From the NCBI RefSeq assembly GCF_044647545.1, contig NZ_CP172818.1: a stretch of DNA of 64,000 bases, one strand, 5' to 3'. This document shows, one piece after another, positions 50,708-55,720 of the stretch; within the stretch, counting starts at the first letter, position 1; every line of letters begins with the position of its first letter. A program made the translations under genes and the position numbers. Below the pieces are notes generated by a model. It had not been told where the DNA came from. It did not search any database and saw only the letters and a program-made list of their open reading frames with translations. This DNA is from Escherichia coli (lineage in GTDB: Bacteria > Pseudomonadota > Gammaproteobacteria > Enterobacterales > Enterobacteriaceae).

Positions 50708-52165
50708 ATGAATACATCTCATGTAAGAGTTGTTACTCATATGTGTGGGTTCCTGGTTTGGCTCTATAGTCTTTCAATGTTGCCACCAATGGTTGTAGCA
50801 TTGTTTTATAAAGAAAAAAGCCTGTTTGTTTTCTTTATAACTTTCGTTATATTTTTTTGCATTGGTGGCGGAGCGTGGTATACAACTAAGAAATCTGGCA
50901 TTCAATTACGTACCCGTGATGGGTTTATTATAATTGTAATGTTTTGGATTTTGTTTTCTGTTATTAGTGCATTCCCTTTATGGATTGACTCAGAACTTAA
51001 TTTAACGTTCATTGATGCTCTGTTTGAAGGGGTTTCTGGAATAACAACAACAGGAGCAACTGTAATTGATGATGTTAGTTCATTACCTCGGGCATATTTG
51101 TACTATCGGTCACAGTTAAATTTTATAGGTGGTTTAGGAGTTATTGTTCTGGCGGTTGCTGTATTGCCATTATTGGGTATTGGTGGTGCAAAGCTTTATC
51201 AGTCAGAAATGCCGGGGCCATTTAAGGATGACAAACTCACTCCCCGCCTGGCCGATACGTCACGGACACTGTGGATAACTTATTCTTTATTAGGTATTGC
51301 TTGTATTGTCTGTTATAGACTTGCAGGAATGCCTTTGTTTGATGCTATTTGTCACGGGATTTCCACAGTTTCGCTTGGTGGTTTCTCAACTCATAGCGAG
51401 AGTATCGGATATTTTAATAACTATTTGGTTGAGCTGGTGGCTGGTTCTTTTTCCCTGCTATCGGCTTTCAACTTCACTCTTTGGTATATTGTTATTAGCA
51501 GGAAAACGATAAAACCTTTAATCAGAGATATTGAACTTCGTTTCTTTCTGTTAATAGCCTTAGGGGTGATCATTGTTACCTCTTTCCAGGTCTGGCATAT
51601 AGGTATGTATGACTTGCATGGAAGTTTTATTCATTCGTTTTTTCTTGCCAGCTCCATGCTCACTGATAATGGTTTAGCTACGCAGGATTATGCAAGTTGG
51701 CCCACGCACACGATAGTGTTTTTGCTGTTGTCAAGTTTCTTTGGGGGATGTATAGGTTCAACTTGTGGTGGAATTAAGTCACTTCGATTTCTTATACTTT
51801 TCAAACAAAGCAAACACGAGATAAATCAGCTTTCTCATCCCAGAGCGTTGTTGAGTGTAAATGTAGGAGGGAAGATAGTTACAGATCGTGTAATGAGGTC
51901 TGTATGGAGTTTCTTTTTTCTTTATACTCTCTTCACGGTGTTTTTTATACTGGTGTTAAATGGTATGGGATATGATTTTCTTACATCATTTGCAACAGTG
52001 GCTGCATGTATTAATAATATGGGATTAGGTTTTGGGGCTACTGCATCGTCATTCGGAGTGCTTAATGACATTGCAAAATGCTTAATGTGCATAGCTATGA
52101 TTCTTGGTCGCCTTGAAATTTATCCTGTTATTATATTGTTTTCAGGTTTTTTTTGGCGCTCCTAA
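50708..52165 (+). CDS. trkG: Trk-family potassium uptake membrane protein
   Basis: ORF 50690-52165; likely ATG at 50708 (MNTSHVRVVTHMCGF...); polytopic; AT-rich relative to its flanks by eye. Confidence 0.85.
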   Translation: MNTSHVRVVTHMCGFLVWLYSLSMLPPMVVALFYKEKSLFVFFITFVIFFCIGGGAWYTTKKSGIQLRTRDGFIIIVMFWILFSVISAFPLWIDSELNLTFIDALFEGVSGITTTGATVIDDVSSLPRAYLYYRSQLNFIGGLGVIVLAVAVLPLLGIGGAKLYQSEMPGPFKDDKLTPRLADTSRTLWITYSLLGIACIVCYRLAGMPLFDAICHGISTVSLGGFSTHSESIGYFNNYLVELVAGSFSLLSAFNFTLWYIVISRKTIKPLIRDIELRFFLLIALGVIIVTSFQVWHIGMYDLHGSFIHSFFLASSMLTDNGLATQDYASWPTHTIVFLLLSSFFGGCIGSTCGGIKSLRFLILFKQSKHEINQLSHPRALLSVNVGGKIVTDRVMRSVWSFFFLYTLFTVFFILVLNGMGYDFLTSFATVAACINNMGLGFGATASSFGVLNDIAKCLMCIAMILGRLEIYPVIILFSGFFWRS

Positions 52166-52302
52166 TATATGGCTGATTTATAATTGTGAGTTTAATATTA
52201 TGTTGACTCACTCATTGATCCAATACCTAACTTTACCAGCAACACCTCCGTCCCCAGTAGCACTGGCTGCTGGGGTGCGTTTTATTCATAAAGCAAGGCT
52301 GT

Positions 52303-52566
52303 ATGAGCGAGAAATTAAAGATAGTCTATCGCCCATTACAAGAATTGTCACCGTATGCGCACAACGCCAGGACGCACAGTACTGAGCAGGTGGCACAACT
52401 GGTAGAAAGTATTAAGCAATTCGGCTGGACTAATCCGGTGCTGATTGACGAAAAGGGCGAAATTATTGCGGGTCACGGTCGTGTTATGGCGGCTGAAATG
52501 CTCAAAATGGATTCTGTTCCGGTCATTGTTCTGTCTGGCCTGACGGATGAGCAGAAGCAGCGATAA
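52303..52566 (+). CDS. ynaK: ParB-like nuclease-domain protein fragment
   Basis: 87 aa ORF (MSEKLKIVYRPLQELSPYAHNARTHSTEQV...IAGHGR) resembling the N-terminal ParB/Srx domain; overlaps ydaY by 20 nt in another frame. Confidence 0.65.
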   Translation: MSEKLKIVYRPLQELSPYAHNARTHSTEQVAQLVESIKQFGWTNPVLIDEKGEIIAGHGRVMAAEMLKMDSVPVIVLSGLTDEQKQR

Positions 52567-52906
52567 CGATCAGTATCGCTCCCGTAATGCATTAATCCGT
52601 CGCCACATTGAGAAAATGGATGCCAGTTTGCACGTCGGAACGAAGGAGTTTGATATTTCAAAGGTTTCCGAGGTGGATTCTGTTGATGATTTACTCATTG
52701 ATAATGCCGCTCGTTATCTGCTGAAAGACTGGAAAGGGGTTGGTGAACTGGTTAATGGTGTTGAGGTTGCACTGGAATATACGGCAGAACGAGGGATCGC
52801 GCTGCTTAAGCAGAATCCAGAGTTGTACTGGCAGATCCTTGCAGAAGCAGCCAGCATCGCCCAGGGTAAAGAGCAGCAGAAGCAGGATACGATAAAAAAG
52901 CCATAG
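52547..52906 (+). CDS. ydaY: prophage protein YdaY (probable remnant)
   Basis: 119 aa ORF overlapping the end of ynaK in a different frame, suggesting a split ancestral gene. Confidence 0.55.
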   Translation: MSRSSDNDQYRSRNALIRRHIEKMDASLHVGTKEFDISKVSEVDSVDDLLIDNAARYLLKDWKGVGELVNGVEVALEYTAERGIALLKQNPELYWQILAEAASIAQGKEQQKQDTIKKP

Positions 52907-52980
52907 CTGCCCAGCGGTGGTTATCGGAGTTCGGGGGAGAAAGGGGGGAAAAGGCAAGATGGAAGCGAGAAAAACTCAGG

Positions 52981-53214
52981 TTGCCACCGATACCGGAACC
53001 AGAAATAGACCCGGTGCTTAAGGAGTTGTTGTACGCCTATTCGGTAATATCCCGTGCCCGACGTTATGCTGGAATGGCTGGGGTGCCTTTGCCTTTATCT
53101 CTGACAGAGATAAATGAATATTTAGCCACTCATCCGGTATTGATTGAGCGCGATGAATTTGAAGCAGTGATCTTTGCACTGGATGACCAGTATTTTCAGG
53201 AGCAGTGTGTGTAG
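52981..53214 (+). CDS. hypothetical 77-aa ORF (TTG start), possible tail-assembly chaperone remnant
   Basis: ORF directly upstream of the tape-measure fragment, the position occupied by G/GT chaperones in lambdoid tail modules; weak start context. Confidence 0.3.
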   Translation: MPPIPEPEIDPVLKELLYAYSVISRARRYAGMAGVPLPLSLTEINEYLATHPVLIERDEFEAVIFALDDQYFQEQCV

Positions 53215-53332
53215 TTGTTAATTACGTACACTCTGTTACAGAGATGTGATGGTGTCTTTAATTAAATCGATGATGCTCCTGGAGAAAAGCATTGCGTGGC
53301 CTCGTAATCGCTATATCTACTATTATGTCGCC

Positions 53333-53362
53333 TGAAACCCACTTCGCGGTGGGTTTTTTGTT
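53333..53362 (+). terminator. intrinsic terminator-like hairpin upstream of tmpR
   Basis: gaaacccac-ttcgc-ggtgggttt followed by tttttgttg. Confidence 0.45.
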
Positions 53363-53379
53363 GTCAGGAGTTTTAATAA

Positions 53380-54408
53380 ATGGCAGAGCAAACCTCGCGT
53401 CTCGCAATAATTATTGATAGCACTGGAGCGAAAAATAATGCTGACAATCTGACCTCCTCATTAGTCAAAATGACGCAGGCTGGGGAAACTGCTGCAAATA
53501 GCGCAGGGAAAGTGACTAAGGCAACAGAAGATGAGAAGAACGCGCTCGCAAAATTAAAAGCAGCTATTGATCCAGTTGGTGCCGCAATTGATACTGTCGG
53601 TCGACGCTATTCTGAATTAAAGAAATTTTTCGATAAAGGGCTTATTGATAAAGAAGAATATGAATTTCTTGTCCGTAAACTTAATGAAACCACAGAGGAA
53701 TTGAGCGGGGTTGCGCAAGCGCAGAGAGAAGCCGAGAAGGCCGGAAAACTTGCTGCCGCTCAGCAGGAAGCGCAGGCTCAGGCCTTTCAAAGAATGCTGG
53801 ACAAGATCGACCCTCTGGCTGCGGCGCTAAGAAATCTTGAACAACAGCATGATGAACTTAATGCTGCGTTTGCATCCGGGAAAATAAATGGTTCTCAGTT
53901 TGAGAATTATAGCCGAAAAATACAGGAAACACGGCGAGAGCTTACCGGAGAGGCTCAGGCAGAGCGAGAAGCAGCAAAAGCGCATGATGAACAGGTTGTT
54001 GCTTTGCAACGTCTGATTGCTCAACTTGATCCTGTCGGAACTGCTTTTAATCGTCTGGTAGAACAACAGAAACAGCTCAATGAAGCAAAAGCTAAGGGGA
54101 TGCTTTCTCCTGAAATGTATGAGGAGCTTTCTGGAAAACTTCGTGCTATGCGGAGTGAGCTTGAGGTTACTCAATCACAATTAAGCAAAACCGGAATGTC
54201 GGCAAAACAAACGGCTTTTGCTATGCGCATGTTGCCTGCACAAATGACGGATATTGTTGTTGGGTTGTCCACTGGTCAGTCGCCATTTATGGTGTTAATG
54301 CAGCAGGGCGGCCATTCAGCTATGCAGGAGACAAGAATCGCCAGCTTACCCGTTACAGCGATACCCGCTGGCATGAAGATTCAGTGCGTAACCGCTGGTT
54401 CAGCATGA
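53380..54408 (+). CDS. tmpR: tail tape-measure protein fragment (N-terminal coiled-coil part)
   Basis: 342 aa ORF, highly alpha-helical A/E/K/Q-rich sequence; C-terminal ~35 codons overlap lom-frame sequence, indicating a deletion junction. Confidence 0.7.
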
Positions 54409-54524
54409 TGGCGGGGCCATCTGTACGCGTGAATGAATGGTTCAGTGCTTATGCGATGGCGGGTGTGGCTTACAGCCGTGTTTCGACGTTCTCCGGGGAT
54501 TATCTCCGCGTAACTGACAACAAG

Positions 54525-55720
<1,196 letters not shown>

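Follow-up and report, generated by a model that had tools for sequence, protein, structure and literature searches.

The segment between trkG and the tape measure fragment in the Rac prophage of Escherichia coli K-12 is very probably a deletion scar in a defective prophage, joined to a 1.76-kb intact island of the tail module that holds a fossil, frameshifted pair of tail assembly chaperone genes. Within it, ynaK and ydaY are what is left of two unrelated phage genes, fused by a deletion of 11,561 bp, and the G gene of the chaperone pair is ydaY itself. From strong comparative evidence we infer that the 149-aa protein encoded by the complete form of this gene is a G-type tail assembly chaperone in intact phages, and that the sequence A_AAA_AAG near its end is a candidate programmed -1 frameshift site.

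Identity of the region and the deletion junction

The window, a stretch of 64,000 nucleotides, is from the E. coli K-12 Rac prophage. Positions 52170-53400 are 100% identical to BW25113, ER1709 and other K-12 strains, in which the RefSeq gene names for the segment are ynaK, ydaY and ynaA (Table 1). The same arrangement occurs in 350 of 5,426 complete genomes, the matches listed all being K-12 or laboratory derivatives; matches to this segment of any kind occur in 1,591 E. coli genomes.

Homology to other E. coli stops abruptly at 52555/52556, where the dinucleotide AA is common to both parental sequences, i.e., a microhomology of 2 nt. At this point 11,561 bp of intact Rac are absent (coordinates 2172586 and 2184147, NZ_CP061185.1). 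Strain LD67-1 has an intact Rac at the identical ttcA-side integration site; there the ParB-like gene and the chaperone gene are 11,561 bp apart, with terminase, portal, capsid and tail genes between them. Since the segment from 52555 to 54314 matches intact Rac at 1759 of 1760 positions, the deletion is recent and retention of the island does not need selection. The island ends at a second deletion junction, 54314/54315, where the tape measure fragment meets lomR sequence. The 11,561-bp deletion took out part of the late operon, beginning in a 263-aa ParB-like gene, of which the distal two thirds were lost, and ending after codon 33 of the chaperone gene; terminase, portal, capsid, head-tail connector and tail tube genes went with it. 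It gave rise to the two chimeric ORFs, ynaK and ydaY, the latter with a fortuitous ATG.

Table 1. Features of the trkG to tape measure segment, in window coordinates
Feature	Position	Strand	Basis or remarks
Terminator-like hairpin	52252..52275	+	Consensus scan: 10 pairs, 7 G-C, T-rich tail TGCGTTTTAT
ynaK, chimeric 87-aa ORF	52303..52566	+	ParB_N, PHROG 620; alignment ends after 52556
ydaY as annotated, 119 aa	52547..52906	+	52555-52906 are chaperone codons 34-149
Deletion junction	52555..52556	.	Megablast breakpoint (query 386/387), three-way alignment, exact identity runs
Candidate slippery heptamer A_AAA_AAG (ATA AAA AAG in the ydaY zero frame)	52894..52900	+	Sequence, conserved in relatives
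T segment, 104 codons and stop, -1 frame relative to ydaY	52900..53214	+	Open frame, codon bias, PHROG
Non-coding spacer, 165 bp, T stop to tape measure start	53215..53379	+	Identical in intact Rac
Intrinsic-terminator-like hairpin GAAACCCAC-TTCG-CGGTGGGTTTT and T-run	53334..53363	+	Some 20 nt ahead of the tape measure ATG
Tape measure fragment (ynaA/tmpR), codons 1-311 of a 1077-aa protein	53380..54314	+	Pfam TMP_2, E 4e-17

The ParB-like gene fragment ynaK

Positions 52303-52556 are codons 1-85 of the 263-aa ParB-like gene, which in intact Rac lies directly upstream of the terminase genes. The remainder of ynaK, 52557-52566 including the TAA stop, is chaperone gene sequence read out of frame, and adds two codons and a stop after ParB codon 85. 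Pfam ParB_N (PF02195) matches YnaK at 31.0 bits against a cut-off of 26.3 (E 2.7e-7), aligning residues 23-77 with profile positions 20-78 of 95, and PHROG 620, 'ParB-like partition protein', matches it at E 2.7e-43 over positions 3-88 of 217. The intact 263-aa homologue covers PHROG 620 end to end, from position 3 to 217 (E 1e-90); such full-length genes are present at L002:6134-6925 and in LD67-1. As a member of this family, whose proteins are about 217-263 aa, YnaK is incomplete and its ORF ends at the deletion junction. Like phage proteins with a ParB/Srx-like N-terminal domain, YnaK can be aligned, through its residues 1-85, with the N-terminal half of the ParB_N domain family, but it differs from them in holding only 85 of 263 codons and in its last two residues and stop, which are foreign. 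The earlier note, made from the sequence alone, had described ynaK as a remnant with a ParB-type N-terminal domain, overlapping ydaY in another frame; both observations are upheld, the overlap being 20 nt (52547-52566).

ydaY as a probable tail assembly chaperone gene

The ATG and first 8 bases of the annotated ydaY derive from ynaK-side sequence. No Shine-Dalgarno sequence precedes this ATG in K-12; the native start is preceded by GAGG. The native chaperone is a 149-aa gene with the tail tube gene upstream and the tape measure gene downstream in the intact Rac of LD67-1, and of this neighbourhood K-12 retains the tape measure side only. PHROG 313, 'Tail assembly chaperone', matches K-12 YdaY at E 6.9e-37 (profile positions 47-149 of 258) and the native 149-aa protein at E 4.9e-46 (positions 15-149). 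All homologues carry the precomputed Pfam assignment PF27119, 'Phage_YdaY'; YdaY had no match among the Pfam and NCBIfam models scanned, of which PF27119 was not one. Erwinia and Klebsiella phages share the tube, G, -1 ORF, tape measure order of intact Rac, as do four distant metagenomic relatives.

The AlphaFold model of the G part (28-sequence alignment) reached a pLDDT of 89, and almost every structural match in BFVD that bears a name is a tail assembly or tape measure chaperone. The first protein of the pair has the tail assembly chaperone fold. The K-12 version has lost the two N-terminal beta strands of this fold as well as the ribosome binding site. A profile search of the PDB with the fusion of both parts returned a proteasome match only (E 0.017), which we judged to be chance. 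In the literature on ydaY, ynaK and Rac prophage chaperone frameshifting we found no description of the present reading.

The candidate slippery site and the T segment

The heptamer A_AAA_AAG stands one codon ahead of the ydaY stop and opens onto the T segment, of which the 77-aa ORF with a TTG start at 52981-53214 is the 3' part, about its distal three quarters. In intact phages some ribosomes would slip by -1 on the heptamer and add a T domain of 104 residues to G. The product would be a 252-aa GT-type fusion with the predicted junction peptide ...QDTIKKAIAAQR, and T would be made only as a YdaY-T fusion. In the records examined no annotation of a GT frameshift product was found.

Conservation of the site argues for this mechanism. 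The heptamer at the homologous codon, together with an extension of 100-116 aa, is present in 79 of 80 related viral contigs, among which the zero-frame stop falls 1, 7 or about 35 codons past the heptamer. More distant relatives have G_GGA_AAG, G_GAA_AAG or C_GCA_AAG at the site, and in two of them, the Erwinia phage (C_GCA_AAG) and L096 (G_GAA_AAG), the A_AAG tetramer only is retained. At 24-34% identity, relatives carry G_GGA_AAG at the homologous ..TVGK codons, followed by a homologous -1 extension of 106-117 aa, and the Lys at the shift site is one of only four family columns conserved at 90% or more. Over the 84 nt past the heptamer, all 35 unique sequences keep the -1 frame open, and 33 of them have a stop in the zero frame; variable sites make up 11/28, 10/28 and 25/28 of the first, second and third codon positions of the -1 frame. 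This third-position bias begins at the heptamer, upstream of any start codon.

The T segment itself is matched by PHROG 1189 (E 1.4e-36), weakly by PHROG 313 over positions 173-246 (E 0.0097), and below threshold by Pfam PF23812, Phage_TAC_18 (21.2 bits against a cut-off of 27, E 3.2e-4, profile positions 14-78 of 79). In K-12 it is undegraded and identical to the copy in intact prophages. Modelling of the 252-aa fusion in AlphaFold (16-sequence alignment) was poor, with a pLDDT of 59.6 overall and below 50 in the G part, and a Foldseek search of the PDB with this poor model gave noise only (E at least 1.4).

RNAalifold, run to look for a frameshift-stimulating structure, detected no common helix in the sequence past the heptamer across 37 unique sequences (-2.6 kcal/mol). 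A 9-11 bp hairpin directly 3' of the heptamer occurs in E. coli-type sequences only (-11.8 to -16.8 kcal/mol), and the K-12 fold over 90 nt downstream is no better than that of shuffled sequences (z -0.24). An AGGA stands 6 nt upstream of the heptamer, but its conservation need not mean that it is a stimulator, because the same bases encode a conserved Gln-Glu/Asp.

The 77-aa ORF had been put forward in the earlier note as a possible tail chaperone relic. The ORF does belong to the chaperone system and lies at the expected place; it is no separate gene started at TTG, the T part is not degraded, and its G partner is ydaY, which that note had given to the ParB gene. Homology was detected to both the ParB and the tail chaperone families, and ynaK, ydaY and the 77-aa ORF are genuine genes or gene remnants rather than chance ORFs.

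Hairpins, spacer and tape measure fragment

Two terminator-like hairpins flank the remnant genes. The first falls between the trkG stop (52165) and ynaK, and is likely the 3' boundary of the trkG moron. The other, which had been noticed before the tape measure fragment from the sequence alone, is confirmed at 53334-53357 and is also present in intact prophages. Its stem has 10 pairs, with a 3' arm ending in TTTT and followed by TTGTTGTCAG; the RNA fold is -16.1 kcal/mol, with z = -2.6 against shuffles. With a G+C-rich hairpin followed by a U-run it has the sequence features of a Rho-independent terminator and is predicted to be one.

The spacer that holds this hairpin varies from 38 to 1371 bp at the same position in relatives, often with extra ORFs, and in most relatives T-run hairpins with unrelated stems precede the tape measure start. 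The spacer with its hairpin matches no Rfam family: a scan of 52100-53500 gave nothing above noise (the sole hit, sroH, scored 14.7 bits against a cut-off of 80). No sigma-70-like promoter was found on the + strand in 52000-54600, and a moron-type promoter in the spacer is therefore without support. The spacer hairpin would most likely mark the 3' boundary of a moron insertion slot, through which antiterminated late transcription would read. Beyond it, identity of the tape measure fragment to the intact gene (L001:6826-10059) stops at offset 935.

State of the chaperone pair in K-12

The slippery site, T frame, spacer and terminator-like hairpin are unchanged in K-12. Of the neighbouring genes, the tube gene has been lost and the tape measure gene breaks off at codon 311. 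Because, in addition, the G part is truncated and has no ribosome binding site, we infer that the K-12 chaperone pair is a non-functional fossil. ydaY is transcribed in K-12 (PMC5811629), and re-initiation after the overlapping ynaK stop may still yield YdaY.

Alternative explanations

Two alternatives concern what the genes are. The earlier note read ynaK and ydaY as halves of one ParB-like gene, parted by a frameshift mutation, a view to which the 20-nt overlap in different frames lends a resemblance and for which one protein, P0043, with a ParB_N and a YdaY domain in a single chain, might seem to speak. It is almost certainly wrong. Aligned to intact prophages, the left side leads to the 263-aa ParB-like ORF and the right side to the 149-aa gene; past residue 85 the ParB-like protein is unrelated to YdaY, which aligns instead to the gene beside the tape measure gene, 11.6 kb off in intact Rac. 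P0043 stems from a second, independent deletion in another degraded Rac, which joined ParB codon 150 to chaperone codon 44, and in distant phages YdaY-family genes lie without exception behind the tube gene and never include a ParB domain. It is also quite improbable that the 77-aa ORF is an independent T-like gene, started from its TTG or from an internal ATG at 53089 and involving no frameshifting. The ORF does have a possible start codon, RefSeq places a start at the ATG at 53089 in some genomes and lists a 41-aa 'hypothetical protein' in the T frame of ER1709, and gene callers give 66-aa ORFs here in relatives. However, the 81 nt between heptamer and TTG are under coding constraint in the -1 frame, with no stops in 35 of 35 sequences; the TTG is replaced by CTC in Klebsiella-type sequences that still conserve the peptide; the heptamer is kept though the zero-frame stop shifts by up to 35 codons; and PHROG 313 is one 258-position family across both parts.

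The other alternatives concern how the fusion is made and whether the remnants still matter. The six consecutive A residues at the site could instead allow RNA polymerase to slip and so produce the G-T fusion, and variants in A-run length that fuse or shift the frames are known from P0002 and P0027. These variants are single Logan or ENA assemblies, possibly with sequencing errors; six As fall short of the approximately 8-9 usually needed for efficient slippage (PMC3711429), and the G_GGA_AAG of distant members has no long homopolymer and is the classical ribosomal shift site of lambda, which leaves transcriptional slippage very improbable. Under domestication, K-12 would express truncated YnaK, and perhaps YdaY'-T, to the benefit of the host, which would account for their retention. 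Overexpression of ynaK reportedly raised the MICs of six antibiotics 3- to 6-fold (PMC12924614), ydaY mRNA is detectable and higher in an rpoZ mutant (PMC5811629), and a second lineage has independently retained a ParB::YdaY fusion beside trkG. Against this, the overexpression phenotypes were obtained by screening a plasmid library and are uninformative on native expression, YdaY has lost part of its fold and has no Shine-Dalgarno sequence, the matches listed among the 350 genomes with the arrangement are K-12 or laboratory derivatives, and the near-identity of the island to intact Rac speaks for a recent deletion; we consider domestication very unlikely. We likewise give little credence to the broader reading in which the scar is active, YnaK and possibly a frameshifted YdaY'-T act on the host, and ParB::chaperone junctions recur beside trkG through selection or a hotspot. 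A possible host effect under such a reading is perturbation of the nucleoid or of stress physiology by YnaK, raising multi-antibiotic tolerance.

Implications for annotation

In K-12, ydaY is labelled only 'protein YdaY' or 'pseudogene', and its Pfam family is named 'Phage_YdaY'. The YdaY family can now be described as a G-type tail assembly chaperone whose conserved, predicted -1 frameshift leads to a T domain that annotations omit. Intact prophages are being given the truncated 119-aa model of K-12: the RefSeq 'YdaY' of LD67-1 starts at a TTG, 30 codons into a 149-aa ORF with a good ATG and Shine-Dalgarno sequence of its own. ynaK was called the 'most interesting' multi-antibiotic survival gene in a 2026 screen (PMC12924614); readers of that study should bear in mind that YnaK is chimeric and holds just one third of a phage ParB-like protein, cut off at a deletion scar. 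With the junctions placed exactly, at 52555/6 and 54314/5, and the 11,561 bp accounted for, the way in which K-12 Rac lost its virion genes can be traced precisely. The region reflects ordinary prophage decay, with its annotation corrected; the chaperone pair is a system of known kind, fossilised in K-12, and our findings leave knowledge of how G/GT-type systems work unchanged.

Comparison with known systems

G/GT chaperone pairs with a programmed -1 frameshift reportedly form the class treated by Levin in 1993 and by Xu, Hendrix and Duda in 2004. Members of this class are expected to produce the fusion in a small, constant proportion, with G binding to the tape measure protein and T to the tube protein, and with neither product present in virions. 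By analogy with lambda, G and the G part of GT would coat the Rac tape measure protein, and T would recruit the tube protein. Lambda gpG and gpGT are produced by a programmed -1 frameshift at G_GGA_AAG (PMC5009743). Like them, the Rac-type pair has the major tail or tube gene upstream and the tape measure gene downstream, with a first ORF of roughly 140-150 aa, a slippery heptamer at most a few codons away from the stop of this ORF, and a -1 extension of roughly 100 aa without a start of its own; distant YdaY-family members even use the identical G_GGA_AAG, whereas the Rac-type heptamer is A_AAA_AAG. The two systems also differ in spacing, as T abuts H in lambda and is separated from the tape measure gene in Rac by the 165-bp spacer with its terminator-like hairpin. 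No sequence similarity between the YdaY family and lambda gpG could be detected (hhalign probability 0.2%). In Pfam, lambda G is PF06894 (Phage_TAC_2) and T is PF06223 (Phage_tail_T), against PF27119 for YdaY; these two lambda models match lambda G and T strongly and match none of YdaY, native G or the fusion. The Rac pair appears to work like G/GT but lies outside the lambda gpG and gpT sequence families.

The HK97 tail assembly chaperone (PDB 2OB9) is a moderate structural match, over about 55% of the model at 8% identity; the YdaY-family protein is the longer of the two and has an extended C-terminal helix leading to the shift site. A further E. coli prophage tail assembly chaperone that uses A_AAA_AAG for -1 frameshifting, encoded between major tail protein and tape measure genes, is ECs1801 of O157 Sakai, whose cluster 'A_AAA_AAG_25' is listed as a tail assembly chaperone and marked true in Table S4 of Sharma et al. 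2014. Membership of this cluster in the YdaY family was ruled out, as it belongs to PHROG 344 and gives no BLASTP alignment with the Rac protein. Neither ydaY nor b1366 appears in Sharma et al. 2014 or in two of its supplement files.

Sites of the dnaX and IS3/IS911 type have the same heptamer as ydaY, decoded by the single E. coli tRNA-Lys. The AGGA 6 nt upstream of the ydaY heptamer and, in E. coli-type sequences, the hairpin directly downstream are further likenesses, but across the YdaY family there is no conserved downstream structure and the upstream AGGA is confounded with coding. The outcome of the shift also differs, in that it leads to a shorter product in dnaX and would lead to a longer one in YdaY-type genes.

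Identity and state of the region

Positions 52170-53400 matched E. coli K-12 strains at 100% identity (BW25113, ER1709 and others; 99.9% for one MG1655 record), and by sequence the region is the defective Rac prophage. RefSeq annotates trkG, ynaK ('ParB/Srx family N-terminal domain-containing protein'), ydaY ('protein YdaY') and ynaA ('phage tail length tape measure family protein', pseudogene) in these matches. The ORFs, overlap, TTG-start ORF and hairpin listed in an earlier note were all found in the sequence. The full K-12 arrangement was present in 350 of 5,426 complete E. coli genomes, those listed being K-12 or laboratory derivatives.

Features of the remnant module (window coordinates)
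Feature	Position	Strand	Description
Hairpin	52252-52275		10 pairs, 7 G-C, terminator-like, tail TGCGTTTTAT
ynaK	52303-52566	+	87-aa ORF
ydaY	52547-52906	+	119-aa ORF; 20-nt overlap with ynaK, in another frame
Slippery heptamer	52894-52900		A_AAA_AAG
TTG-start ORF	52981-53214	+	77 aa
Spacer hairpin	53334-53357		10 pairs, T-rich tail; -16.1 kcal/mol, z = -2.6
Tape measure ORF	start 53380	+	
Second junction	54314/54315		tape measure gene cut at codon 311, joined to lomR
IS5 transposase gene	54672-55652	-	interrupts Lom-like sequence past 54315

Origin of ynaK and ydaY

YnaK exceeded the threshold for Pfam ParB_N (31 bits; threshold 26.3) and matched PHROG 620 (E 2.7e-43), bearing out the ParB-like N-terminal domain proposed in the earlier note. 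That note further proposed that ynaK and ydaY were one ancestral gene split by a frameshift. In a megablast of the region against the 5,426 genomes, many aligned to query positions 1-387 only and many others to 386-1231 only, and this clean split places a breakpoint at 52555/52556. To its left, strain ETEC1739 has an unbroken 263-aa ParB-like ORF (L002:6134-6925) matching PHROG 620 end to end (E 1e-90). To its right, strain LD67-1 (locus L001, from NZ_CP061185.1) has a gene flanked by those for the tail tube and a 1077-aa tape measure protein. The Rac prophage of LD67-1 is complete and adjoins ttcA, in the order int, xis, recET, lysis genes, trkG, the 263-aa ParB-like gene, two unnamed genes, small and large terminase, portal, head genes, tail terminator, tube, ydaY homologue, tape measure and tail tip genes. 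By exact identity runs, K-12 sequence follows the ParB-like gene as far as 52556 and the chaperone gene from 52555, with the dinucleotide AA at the junction common to both parents. The frameshift proposal is refuted because the halves map to separate genes, with 11,561 bp of LD67-1 Rac lost between them; judged from these alignments, ynaK and ydaY are what a deletion left of two unrelated genes when it brought them together. Since the ATG of ydaY falls left of the junction, in ynaK-side DNA, it is fortuitous; the ynaK stop (52564-52566) falls to the right, on the ydaY side.

Right of the junction, 52555-54314 was identical to intact Rac at 1759 of 1760 positions. Identity to the intact tape measure gene stops at codon 311/312, after which the ORF enters Lom-like sequence (to 54539). 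The tube gene and remaining virion module are absent from K-12, and the K-12 chaperone is missing its ribosome binding site and some of its fold, with the slippery site and T frame (the -1 frame extension) unchanged. The simplest reading is that the K-12 chaperone pair is a recent, non-functional fossil.

LD67-1 served as a sequence reference only; RefSeq flags its tail tube gene (L001:4881-5842) as frameshifted, and the prophage may itself be defective. In another E. coli lineage, a separate Rac deletion placed chaperone codon 44 after ParB codon 150 in the same reading frame; the resulting ParB_N::YdaY fusion (P0043) has 246 aa and adjoins trkG (L091:5001-5741, L092:4795-5535, L093:2977-3717). 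Further chimeras are joined at chaperone codons 26-38, i.e., terminase-like::G in proteins P0012, P0013 and P0016 and tube(1-7)::G in P0025, G being the first chaperone ORF. These chimeras may mark a deletion hotspot, or simply reflect ascertainment, since the search that yielded them used the G protein.

ydaY as a probable tail assembly chaperone

The native LD67-1 ORF (L001:5903-6352; ATG with GAGG 6 nt upstream) encodes 149 aa and phage relatives encode 149-164 aa, therefore the first 33 codons are absent from K-12 YdaY. The K-12 protein matched PHROG 313 'Tail assembly chaperone' from profile position 47 (E 6.9e-37) and the native form from position 15 (E 4.9e-46). An AlphaFold model of the G part (28-sequence alignment) was confident (pLDDT 89, pTM 0.80), and its named matches among viral predicted structures were nearly all 'tail assembly chaperone' or 'tape measure chaperone'; two N-terminal strands (E13-16, E29-33) fall within the 33 residues missing from K-12. 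Searching 1.84 billion representative proteins with a profile returned a family of only 64 members. For distant members placed on contigs, a Phage_tube_2 gene preceded the chaperone in 4/4 and a tape measure gene was identifiable downstream in 3/4, the fourth contig being too short to tell.

Evidence for a programmed -1 frameshift

The final ydaY codons, ATA AAA AAG CCA TAG, place the heptamer in the correct X_XXY_YYZ register. The -1 frame that starts at its G has 104 open codons and ends at 53214; the TTG-start ORF is the last 77 of these codons. The earlier note regarded that ORF as a possible tail chaperone relic; it does belong to a chaperone system, as the distal part of the -1 extension and not as a separate gene.

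Comparative evidence argues that T is the product of programmed -1 frameshifting rather than a gene of its own. The heptamer at the homologous codon, followed by a 100-116 aa extension, was found in 79 of 80 related loci (viral contigs), the exception being a degraded copy. The zero-frame stop lies 1, 7 or ~35 codons past the heptamer, and despite this movement the -1 peptide is conserved from its first residue on (AIAAQRWLSEFGG... and AIEAQKWLKEFAG...). Over the 84 nt past the heptamer in 35 unique sequences, 11/28 first, 10/28 second and 25/28 third positions of the -1 frame were variable; this frame contained no stop in any of the 35, and the zero frame was stopped in 33/35. Klebsiella-type sequences have CTC in place of the TTG codon. 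Relatives at 24-34% protein identity carry G_GGA_AAG at homologous ..TVGK codons and, after it, a -1 extension of 106-117 aa that is likewise homologous; two other distant relatives have only an A_AAG tetramer at the shift position. The shift-site Lys is one of only four columns at least 90% conserved across the whole family. The T segment matched PHROG 1189 (E 1.4e-36) and the distal part of PHROG 313, and scored 21.2 bits against Pfam Phage_TAC_18, below its threshold of 27. No conserved stimulatory RNA structure was found in the family, and conservation of an AGGA upstream of the heptamer is confounded with coding.

In P0009 (5 member sequences), a deletion fuses G and T in frame and so would make the fusion protein only. 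A-run length differs in P0002 and P0027 (Logan assemblies), which could reflect sequencing error or real slippage.

The spacer and hairpins

The terminator-like hairpin that the earlier note placed at 53333-53362 is retained, along with the 165-bp spacer, identically in intact Rac, so neither is a decay product. Among relatives (L005, L007, L008, L010-L089), the spacer from T stop to tape measure ranges from 38 to 1371 bp, often with extra small ORFs (e.g., a membrane protein in L005), and it usually closes with a hairpin plus T-run ~20 nt upstream of the tape measure ATG. Because the hairpin stems are unrelated in sequence, the spacer resembles a terminator-bounded slot for repeated moron insertion; late transcription under antitermination would read through the terminator. 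No Rfam family matched the spacer/hairpin region. The other hairpin lies 87 nt past the trkG stop and 28 nt ahead of the ynaK ATG, a placement consistent with trkG as a self-contained moron (promoter, gene, terminator) inserted in the late operon.

Discussion

RefSeq starts 'protein YdaY' in LD67-1 at a TTG (L001:5993), which gives 119 aa, within the ORF that begins at ATG 5903 and has the length of its phage homologues; it appears that intact prophages have been named with the truncated K-12 protein as template. The -1 extension or frameshift product is annotated in neither LD67-1 nor K-12, and the homologue in Erwinia phage Gungnir39 is already named 'putative tail assembly chaperone'. Full-text literature searches found no paper with this reading of ydaY/ynaK.

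A 2026 study (PMC12924614) reports 3- to 6-fold higher MICs of six antibiotics on ynaK overexpression and ranks ynaK the most interesting gene of its screen, treating YnaK as a normal ParB-like protein, with the truncated chimeric ORF unremarked. The ynaK of this antibiotic survival screen is a chimera retaining one third of a phage ParB-like protein. In intact Rac the ParB-like gene is followed by a 310-aa gene, lost from K-12 (L002:6897-7568, L009:23119-24051), which matched PHROG 842 'beta-glucosyl-HMC-alpha-glucosyltransferase' (E 5.5e-67). Directly upstream of terminase, the ParB-like and glycosyltransferase-like proteins may form a DNA-modification or anti-defence pair.

Frameshifted tail assembly chaperone pairs are a well-known kind of system. 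A published genome-wide survey of frameshift motifs in E. coli (Sharma et al. 2014) describes one A_AAA_AAG prophage chaperone cluster, ECs1801; the paper and two of its supplement files make no mention of ydaY. ECs1801 was ruled out as a member of the YdaY family, since it falls in PHROG 344 and shares no similarity with YdaY; it is a prophage chaperone with the same heptamer as the Rac pair from an unrelated sequence family. In lambda, G and GT (the frameshift fusion) form a coat on the tape measure protein, tube protein is brought in through the T domain, and the frameshift sets the G to GT ratio (PMC5009743); by analogy, the Rac pair would have the same roles. No sequence similarity of the YdaY family to lambda gpG was detected (hhalign probability 0.2%; Pfam families differ); by analogy, the YdaY-family protein would work like gpG but lies outside the gpG sequence family. 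The lambda heptamer, G_GGA_AAG, is identical to that of the distant YdaY relatives, whereas the Rac type is A_AAA_AAG.
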